Below, piece after piece: positions 3 to 19,383 of a stretch of 19,957 nucleotides of DNA (its first letter is position 1; each line of letters opens with the position of its first letter). The stretch is from Candidatus Micrarchaeota archaeon (GTDB lineage Archaea; Micrarchaeota; Micrarchaeia; Anstonellales; Bilamarchaeaceae), in the NCBI GenBank assembly GCA_040754495.1, contig JBFMCO010000057.1, positions 1-19,957 on the forward strand, given 5' to 3'. The translations under genes were made by a program, and so were the position numbers. The notes below the pieces were generated by a model. That model was not told the DNA's origin and made no database searches. It saw only the letters and a program-made list of their open reading frames with translations.

Positions 3-3000
3 CTTTTCCTTGCCGCAGAGGAGGTCCGCATCAACGGGGGGCAGGAAGACGCGGCGGTCGAATTCCGCAGGGAAGCCGTGAGGGCGGCCGAGGACATGTC
101 TGGCGGAGCGGCATGGGCGGAAGGGAACCTCGCCAGGACGCTGGCGAATTTCCTCTCCGGAGAACTCGAAACGGCAGCCAACGGCCGCTGGCTCGGGGAG
201 CATCAGGACATACAGGGCCTGCTCCGCGATATTGCCGCAAACCTCCATGCGCTCGCAGAACGCCCCGAAGGCGCCACGGCGGAGGACTTCACGCGCGGCA
301 GGGCCGCGCTCGGCATCGCTTCAGACATGGAACAACGGCTGACCGGCCGCCACCCGCCGGCATCCGAATCAATTCAGGGTGCCCTGGCAGTCTACGGCCG
401 GGCGCTCGAATCGCTGAAAGAAAGCGGAGACATAGAAGCGGCGCTCGGGGAGGCGTCCCTTGGAGCAGCGTATCTTTCTGCCGGCAGCGATGAGGAGAGG
501 CACGACATCGAAACTCTTTCGCTTGCGCTTCACGATGACCCGGCGCAGCTTTCCCGCGTCAGGGATTACGTGGAGCTAAGTGGGAGGATCGCCGGCTTGG
601 AAGAAGAAAGGGACATGCAGAGGGAAGGAAGCGCAATGCGCGCAAACCTCGACACCATCATAGCCGAACTCGGACGGGCCGCGGCCAGGATAGCTGCGGG
701 GGGCGGGCTGGCCGACGAAGCCTGGGTTTCGCAGGAGGAAGAGGACCTGAGGGGACGCGTCCTCGTGGATGATAATACAAGGCGCATGGTTGAAGACTAT
801 GCCGCCCGGAACCAGATGTCGCTCGAAGATGCCATCCATACCATTGCGACGCAGCAGGCGGAGGCGCGGGCCGGCGTGCTGCTTACTGCCGGAGAAAAAA
901 TGCTGGAGGTCCTTGGCGGCCTCCGGGGCTCTGCCCGCAGCGAGGCTGCGGAGATTTTCGGCTTCGCAATAAGCGCGGCAATTGAAGGCCGCATCGATGA
1001 CGCCGGCTTGTTCATGCAGGCTGCCAGGTCATACGCAGGGCTTGAAAACGATACGGACAGGGAAGCGATTCTCAGGGTATGCCGGGAGTATAACGGCTCT
1101 TTCGTGGAAGAGTATGCCGGACCTGTTCTTGACGGGGGAACTGCAGAACGCATGCTGCGCGTGCAGCAGGAGCGGGCAAGTTACCTGGGAGCCGTAACGG
1201 ACAGGGAGCTTCGCCGAAATGCGACCGCGTATTTCGACCTTGCATTAATGGCAGCCGAGGGCATTGACGCGGCCGACGCTGAGTTCGTGCTCCACCTTGC
1301 CGTCTCATACGCCCGGGCCGCAGCCCTGCCTGAGCGCACGCTCGGCGCGGTGTTGCGCGAGGAGAGGGGCGAGGTCATGGCGCTGGCCGAGCAGCAACTT
1401 GGCGATTACAGCGAATTCAGCGGGCGCCGCGACACCACTGTTGCCAGCGGCAGGATACTCAACCTTGGAACAGAAGAATCGAGGCTCAGCGAGTCGGACA
1501 TTACCGGCCCCGTCGCGGTTGCGCTCGTAACGCAGCGGCCGGTGAAGGAAGCCATCGGGGAGGCGGAAGCGCTTGCAAAGTCCATCCCCCTGGCTGAGGC
1601 TGACATCGCCGCGCTCGGTATCGGCCGGCTCGTGGAGCTGGAAGGCAGGCTTACGGCATTCGAGAGCGCGGCCGACCTGTTCGCATTCGAAGAGCGCCTC
1701 GCGGAAGCGAGAGGGACGGATGAGCGGCGCAGCGAAAGAAGATATGGTTCCGAATCGGAAAGGCTGCTCCGGGAAGCTGAGCGCGCAAGGGCGGCGGGCG
1801 ATTCAGAGCTTGCGGAATGGTTTGCCATGCAGGCAGGGCTGATAGACCGCGGCTCGGTTACAGGGATGCTTGATAGCGCACGGGAGATATTCATCAGCGG
1901 CCAGGAGATGCTTGGGGCTGCGGTCGAGCGCGGGCGCGAGGCCGCAAGGGCCGACGCCGCCGGAAACAGCGAAGAAGCGCTCCGGCTCAGGATGGAAGCG
2001 TTCGAGATGGAGCGCCAGGGTGCCCGCCTCATAGACGCCGCGGACCATGCAGTAGCGGCCCTTTCCGATTTTGACAGGAGCGTGCAGCGCATCACGACAA
2101 GGCAGAGGGAGGATGGCCGCCTGGAGCTTTCGGTGAGCGCCAGAACGTACATCGCCATTGGGGAGAGCAGGGATGTGGACCTTCTCGGCAATCCGGTTGC
2201 CGCACCTGTCGAAGCTGGGGCGGAAGCAGTTGCAGCGTCATTAACCGAAGAACGCATCGCCACCCTCACTCAGAACGCACGCTCGGCCCAGCAATCCGGA
2301 AGCCAGGCAGTCCGGCAGCAGGCAGCAATCCAGAGAACGCGCGGTCAGCTCATGGACCAGGCGGAGGCCGGACTCCACCGGGCGAACCTTGAAAATGCCA
2401 GGCGCCTTATCGAGCCGCTCATCATGATGCTCCCCGAAGCCGAGAGGCAGGAGCATACGGAGCGCCTTGATGCCGCCTATTCATCAGGCAATGTGGCAGC
2501 CCTCCAGGAGCTTTACATGGAGCTGGCCGGGGAGGATTTCCCCGATACCGGCATACCTGCCACAGATTCGCAGGGGCGGGCCACATATGACATAACGGCA
2601 GTCGAGCAGTCTTACCAGCGCGTGCGCAGGCTTGCATGGAGCGAGAGTTTCGGGGCTGCGGGCAGGGAACTGGGCGAAGGCGTTACGGCCATGCAGACGA
2701 GCTTCGAAGCAACCCAGTCCGCCCTGAGGGACATCCAGTTGGTGGGGGTTGGCAATGCGGCCCGGTACGGGCGCGGAGTGGCGGAGGCGCAGGCTGCACA
2801 GCTTGCCGGACAGCGTGACGTTGCCCTCGGCGGGGCCATGTCCGGCTACATAGGGGCTGCGGAGCAGACAGACCCGCAGGTGCTGGCAGCCCTGGTAATC
2901 AACTACGTAACCGACCCGGCAGAGCGGAGAAGGCTTCTGGAGAGGCTTTGCCAGCCCGGAATGCAGGGCGAGGCCGGTGAAGAGGCCAGGAGGCAGCTGC

Positions 3001-6000
3001 TTGAAGAGCTCGACGCCATCGAAGTACATGACCCCCTTTCGGGTGCGACGACTACAATCAGGGACATGCTCACCAGCGGCGAGCTTGCGTATTACCATAT
3101 TGATACGTACGTGAGCGGGCCGAACGGATTTAACGACATCATCGACATGGTCGAGCGGGGCGAACTCGAGAACGCATCCGTGCTTCTTGGCGCCCTTCAG
3201 ACAGAGGTGGCAAGCGCTTACGTGGCGCAGGAACTTGATTCCCGCGCCCTCGGCCAGGCGTATGTCGTGGGCATAAGGATGCAGGATGGGGGAGGGCGAC
3301 TTGTTGAATATTCCGGGGAAGGTCCCAGGCCTGAGGACAGCATCGAAGTCACCGATGGACTGTTGTGGGTGCGGACCTACAGCGGCGGCATATGGGAGGA
3401 ATTCGACGAAACAGCGCCCCCTGAAGAAAGCAGCCGCCATCTTGAGCAGCGCATGAGAAGGGCAAGGGCCCTGCTGCCAGTCCTTGAGGCCCTTAGCGAC
3501 AGCATGGGCCGCAGCGCGGCAGAGCATTACGAGGCAGCGGCCTCATACCGCGCCGCCCGCGACGGCATACTCAACGGTGAGGCGCCGCTTGAGCTAAACC
3601 CGGCCCTCGCAGCGGACCTGCTTACCGGGTTGGACAATGCCGCAGCAGAGGGGATGCTGCCCTCAGGGGTCCAGACTCTGAGATACCGCCGGATGGTTGC
3701 AGGCATCGAAGCTGCCACAGACCCTGCTGAAAAGGCCCGGAGGGCGCAGGAGTTTTTCCTGGCAATCGGCCGCGACCCGCAGGCGCTTGGAGCGGCCCTT
3801 GACGGGATAGACGCACTCCCGCAGGGGGTGCAACTGCTTACACCCTTTACGAATACAGCTCTTGCACATCTTACTGGAATGGAGCAGGAGGCGCTCGCCA
3901 CGGAACATGACGGCCAGAGGCAGGTCGCATGGACCTTGTCCAGGACGTGCCTCAGGAACATGCAGGTCCAGCTCAGGATGGGCGATGACGCGGAGACGTA
4001 CAGGTACGAAACCAGCCAGCAGACCAGGCGCGAGGCGGAGGTGTATGGATGGGTCGCACCCACTTCGACGTCGGCGTATCATCGCGAGCTTGGGGGGAGG
4101 CGGGCCGCGCTAGCGCTCACGATTCTGGACGAGGAAAACGACAGGAGGGCGAGGGACATCGTGTATAATGGGGAAACCGTTGCCACCCATCAATATTCAT
4201 TCGAACCGCTTGGCATATCCGCAGGCACTGTCCACATCCAGGTGGCCCAGGAATTGATGACTCTCAATTACTTAGAGACTATGGAAATCCAGTCGTACGT
4301 AGAAGCGGACATCTCCGACATTTCCACACAGGCCCTCGGCTACATGGCCGCGAGGCTCTCGCGGCTCGACCTTGCACAGATAGGCCTGGCCACGGAAGTG
4401 ACCACTGACGAGAACCGGCGGCTTATTATGACGCTCAGTCCCGTCATGGTGGCTGAAGTCAGGCATGATGCGAACGGCAATGTCATGACAGACGAGTCTG
4501 GAAATCCGATAACCGATATGGTGCCCCTGGACCGGGCAAGCCCGGAAGTGCGGGCGGAGTATTACCAGCGCCTCGGGATGCTCCAGGAGCAGTCCATGCG
4601 GCTTAATGACATTCTGCTTGGAGCATTCTTCGCCCATGACACGAGCTGGGGCGAGAATCCGCAGTACAACCTCATGTCCAGGATGAACAGCAGGACGGAG
4701 TCATTGGACCAGGCGCTTTCCTGCCTCTTCAGATGGGCCGGCGCAACTCCGGAACAGCGGCCTGAGGAGCTCCGCGGCTTTGACGCACTGTACAATGTGA
4801 GCGTCCCGATTACTGCCGAATCCGGTTACCGCGATACGGATGCAGACACAAACGCCACCCTGTCGGACCTCAGAATGTGGCAGACCGGGCGCAGGATTGT
4901 AGGCATTGCCGGCACGATGGTTGAGGCGGGGGTCGGCGTGGTCCTGGCGGCGCCCACAGGCGGCGCGTCATTGTTTATCACAGGAGCCCATATGGGCGCA
5001 GAGGGAATAATCGGCGGAATAGAGATGTACCGGCAGCAAGGGGAGATGACATGGAGCGCTGGGTTCCAGATAGTGACCGGCGCATTGGGAATCCTTCTCC
5101 CCATCGGCACGATGGCTTCCGGCATGAGGGCTGTCGCCATGCCTGTTGCCGCGATGGAAGCCGGCGAAGCGCTTGGGACCGGCGCCGCACGGACCGGCGC
5201 GCTCTACAGGCTGATTGGACAGCCAGGAATGGCACCAGAGATGTATACCACTGGACAAAGGTTTGGCCAGTTCTTCCTCGGCGCGCCTGAGGCAGGCATT
5301 TTAGACAGGGCAGTGCAGTTCGGCGGGAGCATGCTCATGCTGAGCGGCGGTGGCATGTTCATTGCTCAATCCGTTCCGGGGCTGGCGGCTGCAATCCAGA
5401 GCGACGAGACCAGGTGGTGGGATTATGCCGAGCTTGCGCTCGGCGGCTTCCAGAACCTGGCGCTTCCGGCCATACAGGCACGCGCGAACATGCTTTATGT
5501 TTCGCAAAGGTATGCGAGCGGCGGCGCGGTGACGCGCTCGCTGACGAGGCAGATTGTCGAAGCGATGACTATTGGGACTCCCATGGATACACCGTTCGGA
5601 TTCGGGGTGGCAAGGGCCCAGTACGAGGCGAACCGCAGCTTCACCGAGCTTTCGCGCGCCGACCCCGCCTTCGCGGACAATTATCATTCTTTCATTGCAC
5701 GAAGCGGCATCGCGTTCACCCCGAGGCAGGAAGCGGAAGTGCTTGCGATTTACCGGGACGCGCATGCTGAAAACCCTTCCATCAGCTTCCATGAGTTCGC
5801 CGCCGGGGAGGGCGCAGGCTCGGCGCGGTTCCGCCAGATTTGCAACGAGTCCGCGCTCGAAGCTGTCATGACCGGCAGGGCGTCGTTTTCAGACCTCGAC
5901 CCTTCGCAGAGGGCTTACATCGAGACAAGGTATGGGTTCGAGAACCCCAACAGCCCTGAAGCGATTGCGGCTGCGGACCGGGCTGCGAGCGAGGCCGGAA

Positions 6001-9000
6001 TGGCCGCAGCCGGGCGCGAGGTGGAAGCGGCCGCAGCGGCGTGGTCGGCGCAGCAGCCGGCGGCGCCCCGCATGCCCCCTGCGGGCGAAATCGAGGCGAG
6101 GCTGACTGCAGCGGAAGAGGCCGATGCGCAGGCTGCGGCCGCGCGGAGGACGCAGGAGCAGGCTGCCCTTTCAAGGCGGCTGGACGTCCAGTTCACGGCC
6201 AGGGAGGGTACTGATTACATAATGGGACGCGGCGAGAGCGCCATCAGATATTCGCGGGAGCATTTCCAGGGGGCCGCGGATATTATTTATCGCGCAGAGG
6301 AGATACTAAGATTGCCGGAGGGCGACGCGCGCACGGCTGCACTTGAGGCGCTGCCGGAGAACGTGCGGACGCAGGTCCGTGACCTAGTGCTCGACAGGGA
6401 ATTTGTCGAGGCTGCGAGAAGCGGAAACTCGAGGACGAAGCTGATGCTCGGCCTGGAGAGGGCTGCGTATCTGCCAGAGATTGCCATGCGACCCGAAGTG
6501 ATGGCAGCCGGATATGCCACGGAGGCGCAGCTTCTTGCACAGAGGCGGGAGATAGGACCGGAAAGGCTTCTGGATTACGCCGCCCAGCGAAGGGAAGACG
6601 CAACCAGAATAAGAACCGAAGCGCAGGAGGCGCTGAGGCATGCTGAGGGGCTGCTTGCAAGGCCGGACAGGACGCCTGAGCAGAGAGGCAGGATTGAGGA
6701 GGCGATAGCGGCTGCGAGGGCCCGGCTCGCGATGGCGGATGCCCTGGACAACAGCGCGCTCATCCTTGAGCATGCTGCGACGGCCAGAAGGGAAGGAGCC
6801 GCGGCGCCTGCAGTTCCGCAAGAGGCGATTGAGGAGCCGGTGACCCCGCAGATAATTACCCCGCGATTGAGCGAGAGGCTGCGCTCCGTAGGGGTGGAGC
6901 TTACGCCGGAAACCAGCCACCAGCTTGAGGGTGATATCGGCGATTTGAGGGCAGGCATCATCACCCTTAACCAGTTCTGGGAGAGGCTCGGCCGCATAAT
7001 GGGTGGCAGGCCGGAGGCGCTGCCAGCGACCCTGAGAATGGACAGGCCGATCCCATCTTTCGAGGAATTCGGCCTTGTTCTCCAGAGCCCCGAGGCGCTC
7101 AGGTTCTTCGTAGAGGTAACCGCAGAGGCGCTGCCGCAGGTCTTCGCTCCCCCGGAAACGGCAGGGCTTTCCGAAACTGCGAGCGTTAATGTCGGCTTCG
7201 TGTCATTCGATTTGAGGAGGCAGAATTTCCTGAACTCGCTGGCGAGGGGCATCAGCAGGGTTACCGGCGACGTGAATGTCTATGAATATTTCACAAGAGT
7301 CGTCCGCGATGCGCCTGCCGAAGTGAACAGGCGGCTTGCCGCGGAAGGGCTTGACGCTACGGTCACCTCTGCTGCCTTCGGCACCAGCTCGGATGAATCC
7401 GGATTCCTGATAATGGCCAGGGATGAGCGCGCAAGAGGCAGGGCGCGCGAAATACTCGATGAAGTGCTGAACGAGAGCTTCAGGTTCGAGGGAAGCGCCC
7501 TTGATTATGTAACCAGGGGGACGGCAATCAGGCCGTATATCGAGGAGATATTCGCCACAAGAGGACGGGTCGGGACCGGCGGGGCTTTCGTGGAGCTTTC
7601 GGTCGCGGACTTCCGGCAGATGGCTGGCGAGCGGGGCGGGGTGGAGGGTTTCATAGATTTCATGAGGCGCATGGCAGACTCGCATATAGAAGCCGAAGAC
7701 TGGGTTAGGCAGGAGGCAGGCGTTCCCACCACCGCTGAGCTTCCTGAAACGTCCCTGCATTTCATGTCCGATGCGGTTCTGGAGAGGCCGTACATTGAAG
7801 AAAGCGGGAGGATGGGCGAAAGATACAGGACAAACCAGGACTACATGGACAGCGTCTTCGACAATCCGCAGGTGAGGGAGAACGATTCGGTAGTCGTTAT
7901 CGAAGGCGGACTGACCATCACAGACAGGAGCAGCGAGGCATATGCGACCCTGGCCTCGCTCGGCGCGAAAAAGGGCAAGATGTATGGTGCCACCACCGAG
8001 GGCAGGGTGGGCCTTTCCGTCTCCAATCTCCCCTCCCAGGCATCCGGAGAGGAGTTCCTTTTCGTGAACAGGGAGGCGGCAAGGAGCGCAGCCGACAGGT
8101 TTGCCGCAGAGCACGGAATCAGCCCTGAAACAATCGAGATAAGGCAGACGGGGGCCGGGCCGGACTTCGTATTTGTAGTAAGAGGACGCCGGCTGGAGGC
8201 TGCCGATGTCCAGGAACTCCTCGGATATTACCGGGAGACGGGCCAGGAGCTTTTGAGCGGAGAGTTCGGCGTGTCGGCCAGCGGAGTGCTGCTTACAGGA
8301 GAGAGGATAAACTTCAGTGATTACCGGGCTGCAATGAGATACCTGAAGGACGGGGCAGCATTCGGCGACATGTCTGCTGGCCCCGAAGGCAGATATGTGC
8401 CGGTGGAGGAAATTCCGGCCGATTATACTGCACGGGCCATGAGGCTTGATGGGGCAGGAAACATCCTTGGCCTCTTCCTTTCATCCGAGAGCATATCTTC
8501 CAGCGATACGGCAATGGCCCAGCAGCTGGCGCGCCTTGCGGGCGAAAGCTTTGTAGCAGATTTCAGGGCATTCATGCAGAGGGAGCACATTTCCATAAGA
8601 AACTGGGAGGACCTGAGGGTCGCGCTTGAGGGGTTCCCGGGAGGGGAAGGGATTATTCGGACGCTTTCCGGCGACGACTTCCTTCTCTTCGTGGAGCGGC
8701 AGTATCCCGATGCGACTCAGCAGCGGGCGGCTGCTGCGATAAGAAGGGCCGAGGCCGAGAGGAGGGGGGAGAACTTCGAGCGGCCTTTCGAAGAGGAATT
8801 CCCCGTAGCGCCACAAGAAGAGGTGGCTGCGATGGCTGTGGGTGCGGAGGAGATGGCAGCTCCGGCTGAGACCGCCCCCCACGGAGTTCCCGAAGCACAG
8901 GTTGTGCCACTTGAAGCACCGCGTTCCGTCGAGGCTCGACCAGCATACGAAGTAGGGCCGCGGCCGGAGGGAGCCGAAAGGCTGCGGGGAAGAGATGCGC

Positions 9001-11882
9001 CAAGGCCGAATGACTTCATCGGCATGGCCCCGAACGACGAGGCGCTTTCAGGCAGAGGTGTGCGCTACGCCGGGCCGTTCAGGCTCCAAGAAGGAACACG
9101 GGTTGCAGAATTCACGGTTACGCGAGGGGAAGGCGAGCCTCCGATTCAGATACGGATAGCTGAAGCCGATGACGCGACGCTTGCAAGGCTCGGCATCAGC
9201 AGAAAGGAGTATTTCCTGCAGCAGCTCGACATGGCAATCCGCTCACCCGGCAGAGGGCCGGGCGGCGGAGGAGCTTCTGGCCCGGGAGGAGAGGGGGCCC
9301 CGGTTGCCGCAGGCGAGCCGCATGCCGCTCCGCATATAGAAATTACTCCACGGCCTGAGGCACAGCCGGCCGAAGCACCGGTCTCTTCGCAGTTGAGGGC
9401 AGCCGCAGACGAGGTAATGGAAGCCCGCAGGGCGGCCGGGAACGAGGCCCTTGTTTCCCGCGAGGCAGTCGATGCCGAAGTGAGCTGGGCTGCAAGGTAT
9501 GGCGCGGGCCGCCAGCCCGAAACGGCTCTTGAGAAGCTGCTGTTCCATGCCGCTGATAGCGCGGCGGCGGCAGCCCGAGCCCGGGGCGGCGAAGTACAGA
9601 CGAGGGAGGTCACAGCATTCCATGCGATTGAGCAGATAAGCATCGGGGCAGGCCAGCTCATGCACGAGGTTATGGCAGGGCGGCTGCCGCAGGAGTTCAG
9701 GCGCAAGTACGAATTCGGGATGGCAAGGGCCGCCAGCCAGGGGCGGACCCAGCCCACACTCGAGGATTTCATGTTCGGCTTCGCTCTTGCCAACGAGGCC
9801 GGCCCGGTGTTCGGGAGCTATATACAAGCCGCCATGGAGCGGGCTTCTCCCGCCGGTGCGTTCCGGGACATAGAGGGGTATGCATTGACCGCATTGTCTC
9901 TGGCAGACCGCATGAGGAACCCCGTGACAGCGCTGACAAGCAGCGGATTCCAGAGCTGGATTGTCAAGAGTGCGCTAAACGAGGTATTCGGCCTTGCCGC
10001 CAGCCTCCATGTGGCTGGAGTTCACGACCCCCTGGCGCTATTCATAAATCCCGACGCCGCAGGCCATCCCAAAAACGCAGGCCTGCTTGATTTGTTCCCT
10101 CCAACCAGTGGCGAGGATTCTTTCTTTGACCTCTCGGATGCGGCGGGGTCGTTTGCCAGCATCCTTGCGAAGATACCTTCGGGAGAGCTTCCAATTACGA
10201 GGCAGGTCGGCGCCAGGCAGTTTGAGGCCGCAATATCTGCGCCGGAGGCCATCCAGGCTGTTTTCGCTTATACCCTTGCAGACATAAGACGGCTTCCCGA
10301 CTCGCTCTCGAGAAGGTCATATTTATCCAATCTGGCTGAGCCGTTCTCATGGACCGATTCGCTGAGCAGGGGGCTTGGAGAGGTACTCATCAACGACCAG
10401 GGGCAGGTATCGGCTCCACGCATAACAGACAGGCGCACGCCTCTTCTTGCATATGGCCTCGCATCACCAACAAACAGGATGCTTGCTGAATATTTGGGAA
10501 GCAGGGCCGCATTGAAGAAACTTGACCCCAACGCGAATTTCAGGGCAGCTGTCGACCTTGCCCAGACAGTGGAGGAAGTGACATGGGCGGTCAATCACCC
10601 GGAGCAGGCCGGTGCAGTTGGCCGCAGCGAGCGTATGAGAGCGTGGCTGGACGTTGTCGAGGGGATGCTGCAACGGCTACCAGCATCCGAAAGCGAGGGG
10701 ATGCTGGGCAGCGTAATGCCACAGCTCGTGAGGGTAATGAGGCATTTCCGGAACGGCCGGCTGAGCGCAGAACAGTTGGGCGAGGTCTGCCAGCTCCTCT
10801 CAGGCGCGCAAAGCGTCTCCGAGTTCAGGTCGCTCTTCGGACAGTGGTATAACAGGACGTTCTTCTCGGACCTCCAGCTCAGCGACGCCTTCGTTGCAGA
10901 CAACGTGGACGTTTTGCTTGACTTCGGCGGATACCGCGAGAACCTGGAAAGATTCACATCCGGCGGCGAGAGGCCTGCTGCGAACCACGAAATCTTTGCA
11001 GGCAATCCCAGGTATGCAGCAGTAAACCCGTATGCGGCCCGCAACCGTCCGGAGGCTTACGATGAGGTCATAGGGGTGCTGGAGGAAGCGATGCGCGCAA
11101 GGGCAGCCGGGCCGGAGGCTTTCGCAAGATTCAAGTTCTCCGAGGAATTTCACTCTGAATTGCAGGGAACGTATAGCCGGCCGTTGCAGCTTGATGCGGA
11201 TTACACAAGGCAAGGGGGTGTGGAAAGCGGAACGGCGCAGGGGGAGGCGATATTCCAGGTATGGCGCCAGGAGCACACCGGCCATGAGTTCAGCGCAGGC
11301 GGCAGGACTTACCAACTGAGCGAGAGCGGCTCTTTCGAAGCGGGGTTCTACAGTGCCCGCATACGCGGCGAGCAGAGCTGCCAGGATCCGACGAACCCGA
11401 ATCCGCACGTTGTCGTGGCGGGCCTGACAGGCACGGTGGAGCTTCCATGGGTGAAGACCATAGCTGTGAGGCTTCCGGATTTGCCTGACACTGTTTTCAG
11501 AAGAACACTCGTCCTTGTACAGGGAGAAAACGGCCCAATCCTGCTGGTGCAGCCGGAATACCACCAGCCGGACCTGCCAGGCTTGGACGCAATGAATGCA
11601 GAGGTGCTCGGTTATCTCAGGGGTATATATGAGCCGCTGGGGGTGGAAGTCAGGGATGTTTCCAAGGCGAGCATTAGGGAGGGCGGGGATGTGACCGGAT
11701 TCAGCACTTTCAGCAGCGGCCGCTCGCCGTTCTTTTACCTGGACAGCGACATGTGGCATTTTGTAGCAGGCCCGCACCAGATGGGCCAGAACGGCCTTCA
11801 TACCAGAAGAAGTGGAGAAGCGGTCGGATTCCCGGCCGAGTGGAGCGGAAGAATAGACCTTGAAGCGGCATACAGAAGGTGA
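3..11882 (+). CDS. Giant (>=3959 aa, 5'-truncated by the window) Ala/Glu/Arg-rich, Lys-depleted multidomain protein; putative membrane-inserting effector or giant receptor
   Basis: Uninterrupted frame from nt 3 (CTT TTC CTT GCC GCA GAG..., LFLAAEEVRINGGQEDAAVEFRREAVR) to TGA at 11880-11882. The GTG at 78 in the ORF track is internal, so the true start is upstream of the window. An 11.9 kb open frame cannot be chance. The function is inferred from its modules. Confidence 0.95.
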   Translation, partial: LFLAAEEVRINGGQEDAAVEFRREAVRAAEDMSGGAAWAEGNLARTLANFLSGELETAANGRWLGEHQDIQGLLRDIAANLHALAERPEGATAEDFTRGRAALGIASDMEQRLTGRHPPASESIQGALAVYGRALESLKESGDIEAALGEASLGAAYLSAGSDEERHDIETLSLALHDDPAQLSRVRDYVELSGRIAGLEEERDMQREGSAMRANLDTIIAELGRAAARIAAGGGLADEAWVSQEEEDLRGRVLVDDNTRRMVEDYAARNQMSLEDAIHTIATQQAEARAGVLLTAGEKMLEVLGGLRGSARSEAAEIFGFAISAAIEGRIDDAGLFMQAARSYAGLENDTDREAILRVCREYNGSFVEEYAGPVLDGGTAERMLRVQQERASYLGAVTDRELRRNATAYFDLALMAAEGIDAADAEFVLHLAVSYARAAALPERTLGAVLREERGEVMALAEQQLGDYSEFSGRRDTTVASGRILNLGTEESRLSESDITGPVAVALVTQRPVKEAIGEAEALAKSIPLAEADIAALGIGRLVELEGRLTAFESAADLFAFEERLAEARGTDERRSERRYGSESERLLREAERARAAGDSELAEWFAMQAGLIDRGSVTGMLDSAREIFISGQEMLGAAVERGREAARADAAGNSEEALRLRMEAFEMERQGARLIDAADHAVAALSDFDRSVQRITTRQREDGRLELSVSARTYIAIGESRDVDLLGNPVAAPVEAGAEAVAASLTEERIATLTQNARSAQQSGSQAVRQQAAIQRTRGQLMDQAEAGLHRANLENARRLIEPLIMMLPEAERQEHTERLDAAYSSGNVAALQELYMELAGEDFPDTGIPATDSQGRATYDITAVEQSYQRVRRLAWSESFGAAGRELGEGVTAMQTSFEATQSALRDIQLVGVGNAARYGRGVAEAQAAQLAGQRDVALGGAMSGYIGAAEQTDPQVLAALVINYVTDPAERRRLLERLCQPGMQGEAGEEARRQLLEELDAIEVHDPLSGATTTIRDMLTSGELAYYHIDTYVSGPNGFNDIIDMVERGELENASVLLGALQTEVASAYVAQELDSRALGQAYVVGIRMQDGGGRLVEYSGEGPRPEDSIEVTDGLLWVRTYSGGIWEEFDETAPPEESSRHLEQRMRRARALLPVLEALSDSMGRSAAEHYEAAASYRAARDGILNGEAPLELNPALAADLLTGLDNAAAEGMLPSGVQTLRYRRMVAGIEAATDPAEKARRAQEFFLAIGRDPQALGAALDGIDALPQGVQLLTPFTNTALAHLTGMEQEALATEHDGQRQVAWTLSRTCLRNMQVQLRMGDDAETYRYETSQQTRREAEVYGWVAPTSTSAYHRELGGRRAALALTILDEENDRRARDIVYNGETVATHQYSFEPLGISAGTVHIQVAQELMTLNYLETMEIQSYVEADISDISTQALGYMAARLSRLDLAQIGLATEVTTDENRRLIMTLSPVMVAEVRHDANGNVMTDESGNPITDMVPLDRASPEVRAEYYQRLGMLQEQSMRLNDILLGAFFAHDTSWGENPQYNLMSRMNSRTESLDQALSCLFRWAGATPEQRPEELRGFDALYNVSVPITAESGYRDTDADTNATLSDLRMWQTGRRIVGIAGTMVEAGVGVVLAAPTGGASLFITGAHMGAEGIIGGIEMYRQQGEMTWSAGFQIVTGALGILLPIGTMASGMRAVAMPVAAMEAGEALGTGAARTGALYRLIGQPGMAPEMYTTGQRFGQFFLGAPEAGILDRAVQFGGSMLMLSGGGMFIAQSVPGLAAAIQSDETRWWDYAELALGGFQNLALPAIQARANMLYVSQRYASGGAVTRSLTRQIVEAMTIGTPMDTPFGFGVARAQYEANRSFTELSRADPAFADNYHSFIARSGIAFTPRQEAEVLAIYRDAHAENPSISFHEFAAGEGAGSARFRQICNESALEAVMTGRASFSDLDPSQRAYIETRYGFENPNSPEAIAAADRAASEAGMAAAGREVEAAAAAWSAQQPAAPRMPPAGEIEARLTAAEEADAQAAAARRTQEQAALSRRLDVQFTAREGTDYIMGRGESAIRYSREHFQGAADIIYRAEEILRLPEGDARTAALEALPENVRTQVRDLVLDREFVEAARSGNSRTKLMLGLERAAYLPEIAMRPEVMAAGYATEAQLLAQRREIGPERLLDYAAQRREDATRIRTEAQEALRHAEGLLARPDRTPEQRGRIEEAIAAARARLAMADALDNSALILEHAATARREGAAAPAVPQEAIEEPVTPQIITPRLSERLRSVGVELTPETSHQLEGDIGDLRAGIITLNQFWERLGRIMGGRPEALPATLRMDRPIPSFEEFGLVLQSPEALRFFVEVTAEALPQVFAPPETAGLSETASVNVGFVSFDLRRQNFLNSLARGISRVTGDVNVYEYFTRVVRDAPAEVNRRLAAEGLDATVTSAAFGTSSDESGFLIMARDERARGRAREILDEVLNESFRFEGSALDYVTRGTAIRPYIEEIFATRGRVGTGGAFVELSVADFRQMAGERGGVEGFIDFMRRMADSHIEAEDWVRQEAGVPTTAELPETSLHFMSDAVLERPYIEESGRMGERYRTNQDYMDSVFDNPQVRENDSVVVIEGGLTITDRSSEAYATLASLGAKKGKMYGATTEGRVGLSVSNLPSQASGEEFLFVNREAARSAADRFAAEHGISPETIEIRQTGAGPDFVFVVRGRRLEAADVQELLGYYRETGQELLSGEFGVSASGVLLTGERINFSDYRAAMRYLKDGAAFGDMSAGPEGRYVPVEEIPADYTARAMRLDGAGNILGLFLSSESISSSDTAMAQQLARLAGESFVADFRAFMQREHISIRNWEDLRVALEGFPGGEGIIRTLSGDDFLLFVERQYPDATQQRAAAAIRRAEAERRGENFERPFEEEFPVAPQEEVAAMAVGAEEMAAPAETAPHGVPEAQVVPLEAPRSVEARPAYEVGPRPEGAERLRGRDAPRPNDFIGMAPNDEALSGRGVRYAGPFRLQEGTRVAEFTVTRGEGEPPIQIRIAEADDATLARLGISRKEYFLQQLDMAIRSPGRGPGGGGASGPGGEGAPVAAGEPHAAPHIEITPRPEAQPAEAPVSSQLRAAADEVMEARRAAGNEALVSREAVDAEVSWAARYGAGRQPETALEKLLFHAADSAAAAARARGGEVQTREVTAFHAIEQISIGAGQLMHEVMAGRLPQEFRRKYEFGMARAASQGRTQPTLEDFMFGFALANEAGPVFGSYIQAAMERASPAGAFRDIEGYALTALSLADRMRNPVTALTSSGFQSWIVKSALNEVFGLAASLHVAGVHDPLALFINPDAAGHPKNAGLLDLFPPTSGEDSFFDLSDAAGSFASILAKIPSGELPITRQVGARQFEAAISAPEAIQAVFAYTLADIRRLPDSLSRRSYLSNLAEPFSWTDSLSRGLGEVLINDQGQVSAPRITDRRTPLLAYGLASPTNRMLAEYLGSRAALKKLDPNANFRAAVDLAQTVEEVTWAVNHPEQAGAVGRSERMRAWLDVVEGMLQRLPASESEGMLGSVMPQLVRVMRHFRNGRLSAEQLGEVCQLLSGAQSVSEFRSLFGQWYNRTFFSDLQLSDAFVADNVDVLLDFGGYRENLERFTSGGERPAANHEIFAGNPRYAAVNPYAARNRPEAYDEVIGVLEEAMRARAAGPEAFARFKFSEEFHSELQGTYSRPLQLDADYTRQGGVESGTAQGEAIFQVWRQEHTGHEFSAGGRTYQLSESGSFEAGFYSARIRGEQSCQDPTNPNPHVVVAGLTGTVELPWVKTIAVRLPDLPDTVFRRTLVLVQGENGPILLVQPEYHQPDLPGLDAMNAEVLGYLRGIYEPLGVEVRDVSKASIREGGDVTGFSTFSSGRSPFFYLDSDMWHFVAGPHQMGQNGLHTRRSGEAVGFPAEWSGRIDLEAAYRR
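936..1313 (+). repeat. Pair of 34-aa TPR-like helical repeats within the giant protein
   Basis: RSEAAEIFGFAISAAIEGRIDDAGLFMQAARSYA (936-1037) and RRNATAYFDLALMAAEGIDAADAEFVLHLAVSYA (1212-1313) align ungapped with 12/34 identities, at a 92-codon period. Confidence 0.55.
4896..5474 (+). other. Gly/Ala-rich hydrophobic multi-helix segment (membrane insertion/translocation-type) of the giant protein
   Basis: IVGIAGTMVEAGVGVVLAAPTGGASLFITGAHMGAEGIIGGI, WSAGFQIVTGALGILLPIGTMASG, AVQFGGSMLMLSGGGMFIAQSVPGLAAAI and WWDYAELALGGFQNLALPAI. APTGGASL lies at 4950-4973. Confidence 0.7.
7188..8780 (+). other. Tandem degenerate GGDEF/palm (nucleotide cyclase-like) modules in the giant protein
   Basis: Module 1: FVSFDLRRQNFLNS...TGDV...FGTSSDESGFLI...RVGTGGAF...FMRRMADSHIE matches the GGDEF order DxDxFKxxND...GD...GGDEF...SIG...RRAD. 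Further signature-like motifs are SGEEFLFV (8043), AGPDFVFVV (8154), and MRLDG (8439) with IRTLSGDDFLLFV (SGDDF at 8667-8681). Confidence 0.55.
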
Positions 11883-11883
11883 G

Positions 11884-12447
11884 ATGATGGAGGAATATTA
11901 CAGCTTGCTCAGGAAAAGATTCACGACCGTAATGGTCGGTACCGACCAGCGTGAGAGGGAAAACGAGCGCAAGGCCCTCGAGATGAGCGAGAGCCCGGAT
12001 ATACGAAAAATGGCCGGGATAGCCGATGCAATCCATAAGGCCGTCCGGAGAAACGGCTCTCCGGATGAGCTCCTCAAGGCCATGAAAGCGTTCGATGAGC
12101 TGCCCGGAACCTCTTTCTGGTCATCGTGCATGGAGGAGGCAGCCGGGGTAGTGCTTGCCAGAGCGCTTTCGCTCGGACAGGAGGATCCCTGCAAGCCTAA
12201 GATGCTTGAGTATGGCGTCGCGATGGCCGGTCGTGCAATGTCTGCCGGCTTCCCGTTGTCGAAGGAGACAGTGTCCCGCGTGAAAGCCGTGAAAGAGGTA
12301 GAGCCTGCGCTCTCCAACCTGGTGGACATCGCCCTCATGATGAACTCCGCCCTTACTCCATCCAGGCCGGAGGGGACCCAGTTCAGGCCGAAGGCAAAAG
12401 AAGGCGAAGTGAGGGGCAGGACACGTGGCAGGGTCGCATCGGGATAG
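11884..12447 (+). CDS. Hypothetical helical protein (187 aa), coupled to the giant ORF; candidate immunity protein or chaperone
   Basis: ATG at 11884, 1 nt after the giant ORF's TGA (TGA-G-ATG-ATG). Normal Lys content (13/187), predicted helical, basic C-terminal tail QFRPKAKEGEVRGRTRGRVASG. Confidence 0.85.
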   Translation: MMEEYYSLLRKRFTTVMVGTDQRERENERKALEMSESPDIRKMAGIADAIHKAVRRNGSPDELLKAMKAFDELPGTSFWSSCMEEAAGVVLARALSLGQEDPCKPKMLEYGVAMAGRAMSAGFPLSKETVSRVKAVKEVEPALSNLVDIALMMNSALTPSRPEGTQFRPKAKEGEVRGRTRGRVASG

Positions 12448-12478: not shown

Positions 12479-13369
12479 ATGGATAAAATACCTGTCCTGC
12501 TCGCATTCGGAAGGCACTGGGACCGGACAGACGGGCTGATTACCCCGCCGGACAGGGGTTTCTACAGGAAAGCCGCGCTTCCGTTCATAGACCGGGAAGT
12601 CCTCGGCGCAGGGCGGAAAGCAACCTTGATACACGAGTGCCGGATAGTAGTTTATCCGCAGGGCTGCGACGATAAGCAGGCGAGGGAATATGTGAGGGAA
12701 GCGCTTGCAGCCGAGGAATCAGCCATACTCGCCATGCTCTCCGATACTGTCGATCGCGGCCTCCCGCTTCCAGGTGGCCTGCGCGACGAGCTGGACTGGG
12801 GGCTTCTGGACCGCATCATGGAAATCAACCGCTCGGAGCCGGGAAGAATCAGGAATGCGATCGAGCACCAGACGCCCGACCAGGTTTATCTTGCGCTTTC
12901 ACGGAATCACCACGACGAGGGCTTGGATGAAGATGCGAGGCGGCGGGAAAGGATGAAAGAAAGCATAAGGACCTCCATTGCGGTGTCCAAGCACAGGAGC
13001 AGGGAGGTGATGCGCCTCGTCGGCGAGCTCCTGGAGGAGGACCCGGGCCATGCGATATTGATTACGAGGGGCTATGCCCATGCCGGAATGGCGCGCCTAT
13101 TCGACCCTTCGAGATTCGCAGTCGAGTCCCATGCGGGAGGAACCCTCTCGCCCCGCATCTCCAGCGATGCCATCATCGCGTCTTATGACAGGGATTTGAG
13201 CGATACCGAGCTCGGGCAGTATGCAAGGCAAAGCATAGCATTCTCGGATTATTTTGATTCCAACTGGAACGGCGAACCATACCGCTCTCTTAGGGAGGGC
13301 GGTGCTGTCATAGAGGGCATACAGCTCCTGAAAAAGCACGCGCGGGAGCATGCCCTCGCCGTGGCCTGA
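12479..13369 (+). CDS. TIKI/TraB-PrgY-GumN/EreA/ChaN superfamily-like metallohydrolase (296 aa)
   Basis: Motifs in superfamily order: N-terminal strand plus FGRH (His 12515), strand plus LIHE (Glu 12635), HRSREVM (equivalent of RN..M), and strand plus ITRGYAH (His 13079; GxxH motif). Confidence 0.6.
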   Translation: MDKIPVLLAFGRHWDRTDGLITPPDRGFYRKAALPFIDREVLGAGRKATLIHECRIVVYPQGCDDKQAREYVREALAAEESAILAMLSDTVDRGLPLPGGLRDELDWGLLDRIMEINRSEPGRIRNAIEHQTPDQVYLALSRNHHDEGLDEDARRRERMKESIRTSIAVSKHRSREVMRLVGELLEEDPGHAILITRGYAHAGMARLFDPSRFAVESHAGGTLSPRISSDAIIASYDRDLSDTELGQYARQSIAFSDYFDSNWNGEPYRSLREGGAVIEGIQLLKKHAREHALAVA

Positions 13370-15183: not shown

Positions 15184-15205
15184 GGAGGGGATAATCATCG
15201 GGAAA

Positions 15206-15256: not shown

Positions 15257-15763
15257 ATGGCTTCAATTCGCACGCTCACGAGGATTTATGCCGCGGAGGT
15301 CAGGGCCGAAGCCATGAGCCTTGAGGGCACCGCCGGGAGGCTGGAGGCACTCCGAAGGCAGCTCTCGGATTACAAGAACCTGTCTGAGGACAGACGCCGG
15401 GACAAGCTGAGATGGGCCCTTGCCAAGCTTGACGACACGGAAAAGTCGCTGGAGAAGGAGGCTGCAGGCGCCCGGGCCGGGGAGGAGAGCAGGCAGTTCG
15501 AGCACAAGTCGAAGGCCATAGGCAGGGTAGCCAAGTTCGTCGGCTACATAGGCGTCCTGCAGTTCGCATCCGAAGCCTTCAGCCGCCTGGCCGGGAGCAC
15601 GTACCTGAGCCTGGCCGTACCGGCGGCGATAGCCGCGGCCGCGTTCATTTTCGTTTCGAAGGCAGTGGATGCCGTCGTGGGCACATCATTCGACGAGAGC
15701 GTGAAGAGGCTCGGCAATGCAATAGAGGAGTGCCGCGGGGCAATACTGAAGGCGCAGGGATAA
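15257..15763 (+). CDS. Coiled-coil plus 2-TM membrane protein (168 aa)
   Basis: Charged heptad-like N-terminal half, then hydrophobic FVGYIGVLQFASEAF and YLSLAVPAAIAAAAFIFVSKAVDAVV. TATA box upstream. Confidence 0.85.
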   Translation: MASIRTLTRIYAAEVRAEAMSLEGTAGRLEALRRQLSDYKNLSEDRRRDKLRWALAKLDDTEKSLEKEAAGARAGEESRQFEHKSKAIGRVAKFVGYIGVLQFASEAFSRLAGSTYLSLAVPAAIAAAAFIFVSKAVDAVVGTSFDESVKRLGNAIEECRGAILKAQG

Positions 15764-15798
15764 AAAACAGTTCCGGCAACTATTCCATTGGTGATGGG

Positions 15799-16911
15799 AT
15801 GGGGGGACAACGGGCGGCGGAAAGGAGCTATTTCTCTGATGACAGCGCGCGCTTCCTGCTTCAGGTTTTCCAGGGCAATCCCGCGGACTACATGAGGCTG
15901 AGGGAGCTTCTTGCGCCCGGAACGCATCAAATCGGCAATTCGCCGCGCGAGAGATTCCTGTCCTGGCTGGCCGAGTACATCGTCCGGCAGGGGAGCCCGG
16001 TCAGGATGGACGGGCAGGGGAGATACGAGCTGAGCGAGGCCAACAAGAGGACGATACTTAGCCGGGCGCGCAGCATGACCGGGACGGACCTGTCTTCGGT
16101 TCCAGTGCGGAGGGAAGAATCCGCCCAGCCTGCAGAAATGGCACGCGAGGACTATTCCCGGCTGAGGGAAGCTGCCGAATCCGGGAATCCGGCAAGGGTC
16201 GTGCGCGAGCTGGCGTATATGGCCAGGGAAGACGGGTTCGGGCTCGACGCCCAGGGAAGAACAGAGGTCCTCAGGGCGCTGCGCGGGATAAGAAGCCAGC
16301 TGCGGCCATATTCACGACGGATTGAGACGCTGTCGATGAGGAGGCTCAGCCACCTCGTTGATGCGGCCGTCAGCTTCCCGGAGGGCTCGCACGAGGCTGC
16401 GGAGTTCCGGACGCACAGGCAGAATGCCAGGACCGCAATCACGAGGGCAGGATATTGGCTCAACTCTGCCATAAGAGCCCTTGAGAACCCGCCTGAAAGC
16501 TGGAGCGGGTCGCGGACCTCGTATGAGGGATTCTCAAGGCTTGGCCGTTTCTTCGATTATCTTAACGAATTCGACAGGGAATACCACGGCATGCTGGGCA
16601 TTGTCCGCCCCGCGCGGTGGCTGGAGCGGCTGGAGGATGTCCGGGATTTCGTGGTGAAGACAGGCATAAGCCTGGCCACCGGCCTTGCCATCGAGGGCCT
16701 TGCGGCGAGGTTCGTAGCCGGCTCACGCCTCGGCCGGCTTGCACTCGGCGGAGCGGGCGGTGTTGCCGGGGAGGAGGTGGGCAGCCTTGCCACGGGGCAG
16801 GAGAGCGAAAGGCTCCTTGCCTTCGGGAAGGGCGTTTTCACGAGCTATCTGAAGCTGAGGTATCCTGAGCAGTACCAAAGGCTCATGGACTGGCTTGAGA
16901 GGCCGAGGTAG
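15799..16911 (+). CDS. Lys-poor, Arg-rich helical protein with a C-terminal glycine-zipper hydrophobic hairpin (about 370 aa)
   Basis: Likely ATG 15799 preceded by an SD-like GGTGA (the track start at 15730 overlaps the previous gene). TGISLATGLAIEGLAARFVAGSRLGRLALGGAGGVAGEEVGSLATG lies at about 16648-16797. 4 Lys in 370 aa. Confidence 0.85.
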   Translation: MGGQRAAERSYFSDDSARFLLQVFQGNPADYMRLRELLAPGTHQIGNSPRERFLSWLAEYIVRQGSPVRMDGQGRYELSEANKRTILSRARSMTGTDLSSVPVRREESAQPAEMAREDYSRLREAAESGNPARVVRELAYMAREDGFGLDAQGRTEVLRALRGIRSQLRPYSRRIETLSMRRLSHLVDAAVSFPEGSHEAAEFRTHRQNARTAITRAGYWLNSAIRALENPPESWSGSRTSYEGFSRLGRFFDYLNEFDREYHGMLGIVRPARWLERLEDVRDFVVKTGISLATGLAIEGLAARFVAGSRLGRLALGGAGGVAGEEVGSLATGQESERLLAFGKGVFTSYLKLRYPEQYQRLMDWLERPR

Positions 16912-18998: not shown

Positions 18999-19033
18999 TT
19001 TGCTCGGCCGATCCGGCCTATTATGCCGGGGCA

Positions 19034-19345
19034 TCACCTCCATTGACTTCCGGAAATTGACGCACAGATTATTTTTTCTCTTTTCGTGAGTTCTGATGCG
19101 GCGAATAACTTTTCGATAATCGTTTCCAGGTCTTCTTTTGTATAGCGCAAGTGACCAACTTGATCATTGCGTTTGGGTTCTGTTAGAAAGCATTTATCCG
19201 AGCACCATTCGCCGAGGACGGAGTCGAAAGTTGGATTATCGTAATGAGAACGAAGGACAATTATTTCATCGATAATGTCACCATCATATAGGATATTCTT
19301 CCCGCAACAGTCGCATACTCCTTCAAGGCACTGTTTGGACTTCAT
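19034..19345 (-). CDS. Small Zn-finger-like protein (103 aa), lower GC
   Basis: CDCCGK...WCSDKC resembles treble-clef (TRASH/MYM-like) Cys spacing. It is co-oriented with the DpnI-like gene. Confidence 0.6.
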   Translation of the reverse strand: MKSKQCLEGVCDCCGKNILYDGDIIDEIIVLRSHYDNPTFDSVLGEWCSDKCFLTEPKRNDQVGHLRYTKEDLETIIEKLFAASELTKREKIICASISGSQWR

Positions 19346-19383
19346 AACGGGATCGATCGGACAACGGGTTTTTGAGGCTATCT

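Follow-up and report, generated by a model that had tools for sequence, protein, structure and literature searches.

Lysine purged from a giant modular protein of Micrarchaeota: selection on the protein and a possible lysine-directed agent

The analysed window, a stretch of 19,957 nucleotides from a Candidatus Micrarchaeota archaeon, encodes on its forward strand a giant protein (3..11882, +) that is nearly devoid of lysine. This lysine was almost certainly lost through selection on the protein and not through DNA composition. The best guess for the selecting agent is a lysine-directed activity on the host side; the statement as a whole, purge by selection plus inferred host-side agent, is put forward tentatively and with slightly less than even confidence.

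The reading frame of the giant is open at the 5′ contig end, and translation of positions 3–11882 yields at least 3,959 residues without a stop (3,934 amino acids if counted from the first GTG at position 78). Judging from its collinearity with a 5,706-amino-acid relative (P0003), approximately 750 N-terminal residues are probably missing. The 3,959 residues include 21 Lys (0.53%), 368 Arg (9.3%), and 7 Cys (0.18%). A recount thus gave the same 21 Lys on which the initial annotation had based its claim of extreme lysine avoidance, and the two Lys-free runs that it described, of 717 amino acids (between the codons at 1578 and 3732) and 901 amino acids (between 3732 and 6438), were reproduced exactly. 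The Lys codons start at positions 417, 897, 1545, 1578, 3732, 6438, 7968, 7971, 7977, 8346, 9204, 9534, 9705, 9966, 10071, 10170, 10515, 10518, 11133, 11454, and 11664. Five of them lie N-terminal and 16 C-terminal of a hydrophobic segment (amino acids 1630–1798), which agrees with the earlier statements that the depletion occurs on both sides of this segment and affects the whole chain. According to our own gene calls (crude, uncurated ORF prediction with a codon-usage filter), Lys accounts for about 5.15% of the proteome, and the giant has the seventh lowest Lys content among the 798 proteins of at least 200 amino acids.

A compositional artefact or chance, with high GC, a low-complexity Ala/Glu/Arg-rich sequence, or a foreign origin behind the low Lys content, has a probability close to negligible. 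The gene does have a GC content of 62%, compared to 59.5% in the genome, and Ala, Glu, and Arg are abundant in the protein. However, GC3 of the giant (0.69) is below the genome median (0.77), Lys content is unrelated to GC3 across the genome (Spearman 0.10), all homologues of the giant are from Micrarchaeota, and the binomial probability of its Lys count is 3e-62. The artefact is already refuted by the numbers of AAR triplets in the gene, which are 21 in frame but 132 and 97 in the other two frames. A position-specific expectation predicts 120 Lys where 21 are observed, whereas Asn is near its expected count (109 expected, 95 observed); relative to the proteome, Lys is present at 0.10-fold and Phe, Tyr, Met, Ile, and Asn at 0.75–0.97-fold. 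The earlier argument that GC bias does not suffice as a cause is thus upheld. GC and length as causes are both ruled out by the weak correlations (Spearman of Lys content with length, −0.14 in our own gene calls) and by the presence of Lys-normal giants of 6,652 and 6,841 amino acids in the same genome. The codon footprint of recent AAR-to-AGR changes was sought opposite the Lys of a Lys-rich paralogue, and AGR was not enriched among the Arg codons at these positions (10 of 21, compared to 28 of 44 opposite Arg). With aragorn, 16–17 tRNAs and none for Lys were detected in this 80%-complete MAG, whose proteome uses about 5% Lys.

Lys content jumps between adjacent genes, from 8.8% to 0.3% and back to 5.5%. 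Two neighbours of the giant had been cited as Lys-normal controls of broadly similar GC. The 187-amino-acid downstream ORF serves this purpose (13 Lys at 59% GC), but the putative nuclease, which had been described as having 218 amino acids and about 21 Lys, was called as an ORF of 162 amino acids with 17 Lys and lies in an islet of 45% GC. The possibility that ordinary proteins are equally Lys-poor was considered as well; no housekeeping protein of the genome is as poor as the giant, and the remaining proteins below 1.2% Lys comprise giants of no known family, surface proteins of the beta-helix type, two M23 peptidases, and a kinase fragment. Bimodality, for which a genome-wide check had been suggested, is clear among proteins of at least 1,000 amino acids (13 with at most 1.7% and 16 with at least 3.6% Lys) and among homologous giants, but weak by gene count, where the K/(K+R) histogram has a weak shoulder at 0–0.10 and no clean second mode.

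Pfam searches with the whole giant retrieved no family at E-values up to 0.1. Comparison with its homologues established the giant as a member of a modular protein family that is specific to Micrarchaeota and ranges from 3,000 to 7,000 amino acids. Its members combine a helical scaffold with hydrophobic hairpins and exchangeable enzyme modules, and their GNAT-like end is paired with a small partner protein. The N-terminal scaffold (amino acids 1–1629; 3..4889, +) is rich in Ala, Glu, and Arg, contains only 5 Lys, and is homologous to P0003, to a second relative (P0004), and to the Lys-poor giant C42:3466-21909 at 25–30% identity over about 600 to 2,300 aligned residues (27.7% over 2,322 columns for P0003, and 25% over 1,588 columns for C42:3466-21909). 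It is followed by Gly/Ala-rich hydrophobic segments (amino acids 1630–1664, 1682–1716, and 1770–1798; 4890..5396, +), which include an APTGGASL motif and have an equivalent in P0003 and P0004. The giant thus has the collinear N-terminal scaffold and the Gly-rich hydrophobic hairpins of the other giants, and like them it ends in a C-terminal module followed by a small partner gene.

Between hairpins and C-terminus lies a shared, cyclase-like cargo module of 680 amino acids (amino acids 2266–2945; 6798..8837, +), whose overall architecture was nearest to Cas10 (Csm1/Cmr2) in Foldseek searches (E-value 1.2e-5 and probability 0.99 against Cas10 chains, with a TM of only about 0.18). It contains a GGDEF-type palm domain (amino acids 2602–2806; 7806..8420, +) with SGEEF at the GG(D/E)EF position. 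The predicted model of the module (pLDDT 69.6 overall, and 78–94 over most of the palm domain) has a palm fold with a GG(D/E)EF hairpin, and the palm domain aligned with the GGDEF domain of DosC over 150 of 161 residues (VIA Z 10.5, rmsd 3.1 Å). On the sequence level the cargo module had no match to the Pfam GGDEF family at E-values up to 0.1, and profiles of the cargo and C-terminal modules retrieved chance-level matches only from the PDB.

The conserved C-terminal module (amino acids 3159–3959; 9477..11879, +) gave profile matches with E-values down to 1e-269. Its family, as retrieved by an exhaustive profile search (word-based searches gave only 3–4 giants per module), has only 45 representatives among 1.84 billion proteins, and almost all of these are located at the C-terminus of giants or are proteins of 270–390 amino acids. 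The last part of the module adopts a GNAT-like fold (amino acids 3756–3959; 11268..11879, +) within a predicted domain spanning amino acids 3638–3959 (pLDDT 93), and carries an invariant Cys-Gln (SCQDP at 11376). The matches listed by Foldseek were GNAT enzymes (probability up to 1.00, best E-value 9e-4), and 50 of 50 among the matches listed by VIA were GNAT-type acetyltransferases, the best of which was NatD (Z 7.3, rmsd 4.0 Å, 154 aligned residues). With its middling Z, this is a similarity of the predicted domain at the fold level only, and the domain is not called a member of the GNAT family; no Pfam acetyltransferase family was matched at E-values up to 0.1, and the profile had no sequence match in the PDB. 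GNAT enzymes acylate amines, including Lys, and the purge could protect the giant from a lysine-modifying enzyme of its own or one delivered together with it, for example from auto-acetylation by the GNAT-like domain. This explanation, an option already named in the initial annotation, is disfavoured and considered very unlikely despite the fold, since the same domain also occurs on giants with 3.7–8.7% Lys and as stand-alone Lys-normal proteins, has itself 4–9% Lys in these contexts, and the cyclase-like module is likewise found in both lysine states.

The cargo module is 48.6% identical to amino acids 3182–3866 of a Lys-rich giant encoded in the same genome (C42:26751-46709), and their alignment of 774 columns contains 4 Lys in the giant and 44 in its paralogue. 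Each of the 4 retained Lys aligns with a Lys, and 15 Lys of the Lys-rich giant are replaced by Arg. All 4 are situated within the palm domain (7968, 7971, 7977, and 8346), 2 of them being invariant in 6 homologues; the Lys of the palm module and 2 of 10 in the C-terminal module are at positions conserved in homologues. On contig C42, a segment common to two neighbouring giants (83% identity) contains 3 Lys in one and 11 in the other, with 8 of 8 Lys differences in the same direction (binomial, two-sided P about 0.008) and 5 of these being Arg/Lys exchanges. Giants with the same C-terminal module form two groups with 0.10–1.43% (n = 12) and 3.67–8.73% Lys (n = 7), and on the domain tree the lysine state switched no fewer than 4 times (7 times by parsimony). 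Both states coexist within this genome, even on one contig, and likewise in the MAG DeMMO3_13. Judged from the sequences, lysine state is a property of the individual protein, same-fold relatives being Lys-normal even when they are encoded in this genome and on one contig with a Lys-poor protein. Arg is the most common replacement of the Lys lost from the giant, which otherwise gave way to Ala, Glu, Gln, or Gly, and Arg content is 10.6% in Lys-poor giants versus 7.7% in Lys-rich ones. Since charge was thus mostly kept, the selection seems aimed at the amino group rather than at charge. The closest relatives, P0003 and P0004, have 8 and 6 Lys within the first 200 amino acids; a Lys-exempt N-terminal domain is not general, most Lys-poor giants being purged from residue 1.

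The gene following the giant is a Lys-rich partner ORF of 187 amino acids (11884..12447, +; 13 Lys, 6.9%), which begins 2 nt past the stop of the giant. Homologues are found at the same position in 9 other loci, and the partner is Lys-rich (5.9–14.3%) in 10 of 10 loci examined, whatever the lysine state of the giant. The partner is predicted to bind the GNAT-like domain with an ipSAE of 0.85, compared to 0.04 for the best control (58 of 80 solved complexes attain the ipSAE mark applied, as do 2 of 110 mismatched pairs), and the predicted interface covers the invariant Cys region of the domain; agreement between runs was at least 72% and the pLDDT of the partner at least 81. The giant is thus accompanied by a conserved adjacent small gene whose product, according to this prediction, binds the enzyme domain. 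Further downstream, an ORF of 296 amino acids (12479..13369, +; 8 Lys, 33 Arg) belongs to no Pfam family, and its homologues flank the loci of related giants; in three of these loci (L053, L061, and L068) their position is clearly downstream of the C-terminal module.

About 20 proteins of the genome share a common signature in being Lys-poor, Arg-rich, and Cys-poor, having no signal peptide, and mostly belonging to no known family. Together (20 proteins, 24,389 amino acids) they contain 0.60% Lys, 10.6% Arg, and 0.17% Cys; most have no Pfam family and one is an M23 peptidase, while a 241-amino-acid M23-like ORF outside the 20 shares the signature. Within the window, the signature recurs in a 393-amino-acid protein without a Pfam family (15730..16911, +; 5 Lys, 52 Arg, no Cys), for which no paralogue was found in this genome. 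Crude hydropathy scans for membrane segments and signals revealed no Sec-type or other export signal in the giant and the Lys-poor proteins. Candidate lysine-directed agents encoded in the genome are three ORFs of the trypsin family and two ORFs with strong matches to the transglutaminase core (two further matches are weak), and nothing links these to Lys specificity or to the Lys-poor set.

The purge would most readily be explained by the withholding of a target from a chemistry that needs the epsilon-amino group of lysine and spares arginine. This chemistry could be ubiquitin-like (SAMP/Urm1-type) tagging for the proteasome, a different modification directed at lysine, or cleavage specific for Lys, and it would most likely be met outside the symbiont cytoplasm, at or inside the host cell. 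The approximately 20 proteins with the signature would then probably be a co-travelling set, and the Lys-rich partner would remain at home as an inhibitor or chaperone. A more specific version, in which the purge marks proteins sent by the DPANN archaeon into the host cytoplasm that escape SAMP/Urm1-type tagging and the proteasome as an archaeal counterpart of ERAD-evading AB toxins, is unlikely as it stands; the Lys-rich and Lys-poor paralogues would here reflect different hosts or an ongoing arms race. The two kinds of paralogue coexist in the same cell and agree in scaffold, hairpins, Cys avoidance, and partner genes; a common destination would therefore be expected to have cost the Lys-rich copies their lysine as well, unless targets or lifetimes differ.

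The symbiont itself has genes for a ThiF-type E1, for a ThiS-like protein of 87 amino acids with a terminal Gly-Gly, and for subunits of the 20S proteasome, and an agent inside its own cell would thus be equally possible. The purge could accordingly shield costly giants from the symbiont's own lysine-directed turnover or modification, be it SAMP/Urm1-type conjugation with the proteasome or non-enzymatic acylation, with the Lys-poor copies being long-lived and the Lys-rich paralogues regulated and short-lived. This would explain both kinds of paralogues in one cell, and is in line with the presence of the E1, of both 20S proteasome subunits, and of a PP-loop gene (NcsA-like by motifs) adjoining that of the ThiS-like protein. 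However, the ThiF and ThiS-like genes say little, because the respective searches matched 12 of 14 and 11 of 14 control genomes and because such proteins also serve in sulfur transfer. Moreover, other large cytoplasmic proteins of the genome retain 5–9% Lys, and two M23 peptidase-like ORFs, of a family that usually acts outside the cell, share the signature. Stabilisation within the symbiont is rated as rather unlikely.

A constraint imposed by the export route, for example by unfolded threading through a dedicated channel or by membrane insertion of the Gly-rich hairpins with Arg tolerated and Lys not, could account for a chain that is purged on both sides of the hairpins and has no Sec-type signal. 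The low Cys content of the whole giant family (0.12–0.16%) fits as well, since Cys avoidance is typical of proteins secreted unfolded, and a skewed Arg/Lys usage in toxin translocating domains was reportedly described by London and Luongo in 1989. However, the Lys-rich giants of this genome have the same scaffold, hairpins, and Cys avoidance, and this architecture therefore does not require the removal of lysine; we are also aware of no translocon that distinguishes between Lys and Arg. An export constraint is regarded as quite unlikely. Adaptation to alkaline or saline water by replacement of Lys by Arg in exposed proteins, of the kind seen in alkaliphiles and halophiles (the low Lys content of the latter is discussed in PMC13696103), is highly improbable and was rejected. 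Extracytoplasmic proteins do not have a low K/(K+R), with a median of 0.47 for 123 proteins with N-terminal signals or anchors versus 0.44 for 592 proteins without membrane segments (crude hydropathy), and the proteome is not acidic in the manner of halophiles (5.2% Asp, 6.9% Glu). The Lys-poor relatives stem from groundwater, marine sediment, and a deep mine, and both lysine states occur within one genome.

Little is known of the ways in which DPANN archaea affect their hosts, and the giant proteins of these archaea cannot be assigned to known families. The selected and switchable removal of a single amino acid is a simple handle, based on sequence only, that picks out about 20 proteins (6% of the proteome) that probably share a fate, apart from partners that keep their lysine. 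The purge predicts a lysine-directed defence or turnover system in an archaeal symbiosis. It also provides an unusually clean natural test of the lysine-desert hypothesis, as the same folds occur with and without lysine in one genome.

A lysine desert is defined as a stretch of 150 or more consecutive residues without Lys or, in relative terms, as a Lys-free region over at least 50% of the sequence (Szulc et al., 2023, as quoted in PMC13696103). With its runs of 901 and 717 amino acids the giant qualifies under the former but not the latter definition (901 of 3,959 amino acids, or 23%), under which some relatives do qualify, among them P0026 (3,492 of 5,122 amino acids Lys-free). Like the known deserts, which are read as shields against lysine-directed tagging, the giant has long Lys-free stretches and Arg where Lys-normal relatives have Lys. 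The examples covered in PMC13696103 are toxin subunits, phage proteins, components of the ubiquitin system, and selected Actinobacteria and their phages, and GC bias is named there as an unresolved confounder in the Actinobacteria. In contrast, the purge described here spans a whole archaeal protein of at least 4,000 amino acids, has same-fold homologues in both states, and is freed from this confounder by internal controls, namely the same folds with and without lysine in one genome. No published description of Lys-purged giants of Micrarchaeota was found. Ricin A, cholera toxin A1, and pertussis S1 resemble the giant in their strong bias for Arg over Lys, which in these toxins concerns the part entering the cytoplasm of another cell, and the few lysines retained by Lys-poor AB-toxin chains are functionally constrained too; these chains have 200–300 amino acids and exploit eukaryotic ERAD and ubiquitin, and the comparison is by analogy only. 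The giant differs from MARTX toxins in being archaeal and without sequence relationship to them (Pfam found nothing), neither RTX repeats nor a known secretion system were found for it, and MARTX toxins are, to our knowledge, not purged of lysine. With MARTX-type and polymorphic multi-effector toxins with immunity partners it nevertheless shares very few Cys, exchangeable enzyme cargo modules, and a conserved region, in the giant a putative delivery region, that has Gly-rich hydrophobic segments; its terminal enzyme domain is likewise followed by a small gene, and the product of this gene is a predicted binder of that domain.

The window spans an entire contig (C57) of an assembly (GCA_040754495.1) that has a size of 1.63 Mb in 72 contigs, a G + C content of 59.5% and a completeness rated at about 80%, and contains an archaeal 16S fragment. 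Public records holding relatives of the giant protein are nearly all labelled Candidatus Micrarchaeota. The 3,959-residue translation of the frame at 3–11882 (+) contains 21 Lys, 368 Arg and 7 Cys. This frame is open at the contig's 5′ edge; judged by collinearity with a relative of 5,706 aa, the protein probably continues for some 750 N-terminal residues past that edge. Two stretches devoid of Lys, 717 and 901 residues long, matched those of the initial annotation exactly. With our own ORF calls and a codon-usage filter (1,082 ORFs kept), the proteome contained 5.15% Lys and 6.7% Arg, and the giant was the seventh lowest in Lys among 798 proteins of at least 200 aa.

Base composition does not explain the depletion, and GC bias alone had already been judged insufficient in the initial annotation. 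Across the proteome, Lys content was unrelated to GC3 (Spearman 0.10) and weakly related to protein length (Spearman −0.14). The giant's ORF contains 21 AAA and AAG codons in frame versus 132 and 97 in the two other frames, and about 120 Lys (21 observed) would be expected from position-specific base frequencies, compared with 109 Asn, the other residue with AA-starting codons (95 observed). Relative to the proteome, Lys stands at 0.10×, Arg at 1.39× and Cys at 0.15×, with Phe, Tyr, Met, Ile and Asn at 0.75–0.97×. The 187-aa partner ORF (11884–12447, +), which starts 2 nt past the giant's stop, has the same GC and 6.9% Lys, and successive genes on contig C42 go from 8.8% to 0.3% and back to 5.5% Lys. 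The nuclease previously proposed as a Lys-normal control of similar GC is a poor one because it is sited in a 45% GC islet, and its length was 162 aa in our ORF calls rather than 218 aa. This islet (about 44–45% GC, window about 19020–19872) encodes the 162-aa DpnI-like (Dam-replacing family) ORF and a Cys-rich ORF of 103 aa, and is probably a mobile insertion. The depletion reflects protein-specific selection against Lys with positive charge largely kept, a pattern suggesting that the liability lies in the epsilon-amino group.

Pfam searches of the giant found no family; its plan was drawn from homology and structure prediction. An Ala/Glu/Arg-rich scaffold (residues 1–1629) is followed by three Gly/Ala-rich hydrophobic segments (1630–1798), a cargo module with a GGDEF-type palm (2266–2945; window 6798–8837, palm 7806–8420), a Pro/Ala-rich linker and a conserved C-terminal module that ends in a GNAT-like stretch of ~200 residues (window 11268–11879). 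The earlier idea of a palm module gained support from structure comparison of the palm with the DosC GGDEF domain (VIA Z 10.5, rmsd 3.1 Å, 150 residues aligned), from SGEEF at the signature hairpin, and from Cas10 (Csm1/Cmr2) as the nearest Foldseek match of the whole cargo module (E 1.2e-5, probability 0.99, TM low); the predicted models suggest that this archaeal giant carries a nucleotide cyclase as cargo. The GNAT-like part was modelled with a pLDDT of 93 and contains an invariant Cys-Gln (SCQDP); Foldseek gave a probability of about 1.0 (E 9e-4), and every match listed by VIA (best Z 7.3) was a GNAT-type acetyltransferase. Lys avoidance could in principle protect the giant from its own GNAT-like or cyclase-like domains, but such self-protection is unlikely because the same domains also occur in Lys-rich proteins.

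Residues 2266–2938 have a counterpart of 48.6% identity within another giant of this genome, 6,652 aa long (C42:26751–46709, 6.6% Lys). Over 774 aligned columns, the window's giant has 4 Lys, all facing Lys of the larger protein, versus 44 in the latter, whose other 40 face Arg (15 cases), Ala, Glu, Gln or other residues. The 6,652-aa giant adjoins a Lys-poor one (C42:3466–21909; 6,147 aa, 0.31% Lys), with which it has a kinase-like segment of 83% identity in common, containing 11 Lys in the Lys-rich and 3 in the Lys-poor copy; the differences run 8 to 0 in one direction, five of the eight being Arg/Lys. In the module alignments, Lys fell at conserved or invariant columns in 4 of 4 cases for the palm module and 2 of 10 for the C-terminal module. 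Judged from these sequences, Lys depletion is not a consequence of the fold.

A search of 1.84 billion proteins with the C-terminal module profile retrieved only 45 representatives, most of them located at the C-terminal end of giants. Those of at least 2,900 aa contained either 0.10–1.43% (n = 12) or 3.67–8.73% Lys (n = 7), with none between, and their Lys-free runs reach 3,492 aa, which makes the window's giant a moderate case. On the C-terminal-domain tree the Lys state requires seven changes, at least four of them forced by well-supported branches, a count possibly inflated by module shuffling. Among 21 giants (these 19 and two sharing only the cyclase-like module), mean Arg was 10.6% in Lys-poor versus 7.7% in Lys-rich proteins, and Gln was also higher in the former. 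Mean Cys was equally low in either state (0.16% and 0.12%; proteome 1.2%), which makes Cys avoidance a trait of the family and Lys content the one that switches. The helical giants of this genome (C22:20178–40703 and others on C42, C16, C28, C49 and C57) have 0–7 Cys per 1,400–6,800 aa in any Lys state. Lys-poor and Lys-rich giants occur side by side in the window's genome, and such mixture is not unique to it: four loci with the C-terminal module in another Micrarchaeota MAG, DeMMO3_13 (L054, L055, L061 and L062) encode proteins with 2.5, 0.6, 4.6 and 6.8% Lys (partial frames).

The Lys-poor proteins of the genome are of three kinds: polytopic membrane proteins, acidic surface proteins, and a distinct class with K/(K+R) < 0.13. 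The acidic surface proteins are of an ordinary kind, low in Arg, rich in Cys and in most cases bearing a hydrophobic segment at the N-terminus. Beta-helix/NosD domains were present in the four that were scanned, with DUF11 in one of these. The distinct class comprises 20 proteins (24,389 aa; K 0.60%, R 10.6%, Cys 0.17%), including a 393-aa ORF in the window (15730–16911); a signal-like N-terminus is absent from 19 of them, and almost none has a Pfam family. One of the 20 is an M23-peptidase-like ORF (C41:47698–49002; 5 K/46 R); the signature recurs in a second, smaller M23-like ORF (C34:487–1212; 2 K/28 R) that is not counted among them and scores just below the Pfam cut-off. Both M23-like ORFs found among the scanned Lys-poor proteins are thus Arg-rich, and the purge reaches a lytic-type enzyme family. 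No comparably Lys-poor housekeeping protein was found among the Lys-poor proteins of this genome. An environmental adaptation of exported proteins in general is disfavoured by the normal K/(K+R) of 0.47 in proteins with signal-like N-termini. A paralogous family of 330–410 aa with 0–4 Lys each and 34–44% mutual identity (C55:16098–17336, C55:17535–18734, C65:22942–24105, C71:10754–11749) gave a weak SprT-like Pfam hint only; a distant paralogue with 6 Lys (C22:18809–19777) lies about 70 nt upstream of a small ORF preceding a Lys-rich 6,841-aa giant.

Homologues of the partner ORF occupy the matching position at nine other loci and are all Lys-rich (5.9–14.3%), irrespective of the giant's Lys state. 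A predicted complex of the partner with the GNAT-like domain scored 0.85 versus 0.04 for the best control (run agreement ≥72%, partner pLDDT ≥81), a mark that 58 of 80 complexes of solved structure and 2 of 110 mismatched pairs attained, and the predicted interface covers the invariant Cys-Gln region. As modelled, the pair resembles an effector with its inhibitor, immunity protein or chaperone. Homologues of the adjacent 296-aa ORF (12479–13369), in which no Pfam family was found, flank at least six independent loci with related giants (closest 50% identity). A further neighbour (14227–15198, minus) has a CAP/cysteine-rich-secretory-protein domain (Pfam E 1.3e-10) and a hydrophobic, signal-like N-terminus.

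The favoured reading is that the giant would meet a putative Lys-directed agent of tagging, modification or cleavage at its site of action, probably on or within the host, because the Lys-purged set is Cys-poor, without known families or Sec signals, and includes lytic-type M23 peptidases, and because each giant's partner retains its Lys. What weakens this reading most is the presence, in the same cell, of Lys-rich paralogues built to the same plan. These paralogues, together with the symbiont's own E1-like, ThiS-like and proteasome genes, make own-cell turnover, with the purge as protection within the symbiont itself, a serious rival. An 87-aa ThiS/MoaD-like protein with a Gly-Gly end (C45:17869–18015; 1498–1761 of extracted locus L045, minus strand) adjoins a PP-loop gene that is NcsA-like by motifs; a ThiF-type E1 (C32:40893–41525) and 20S proteasome alpha and beta subunits are encoded elsewhere, and the symbiont may possess its own SAMP/Urm1-type system. 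In a full-text literature search on lysine-poor or giant proteins of DPANN or Micrarchaeota, no account of the phenomenon turned up. Both lysine deserts and toxin chains poor in Lys are already known (PMC13696103); the present analysis contributes controls from within one genome and one operon, as well as two fold assignments.
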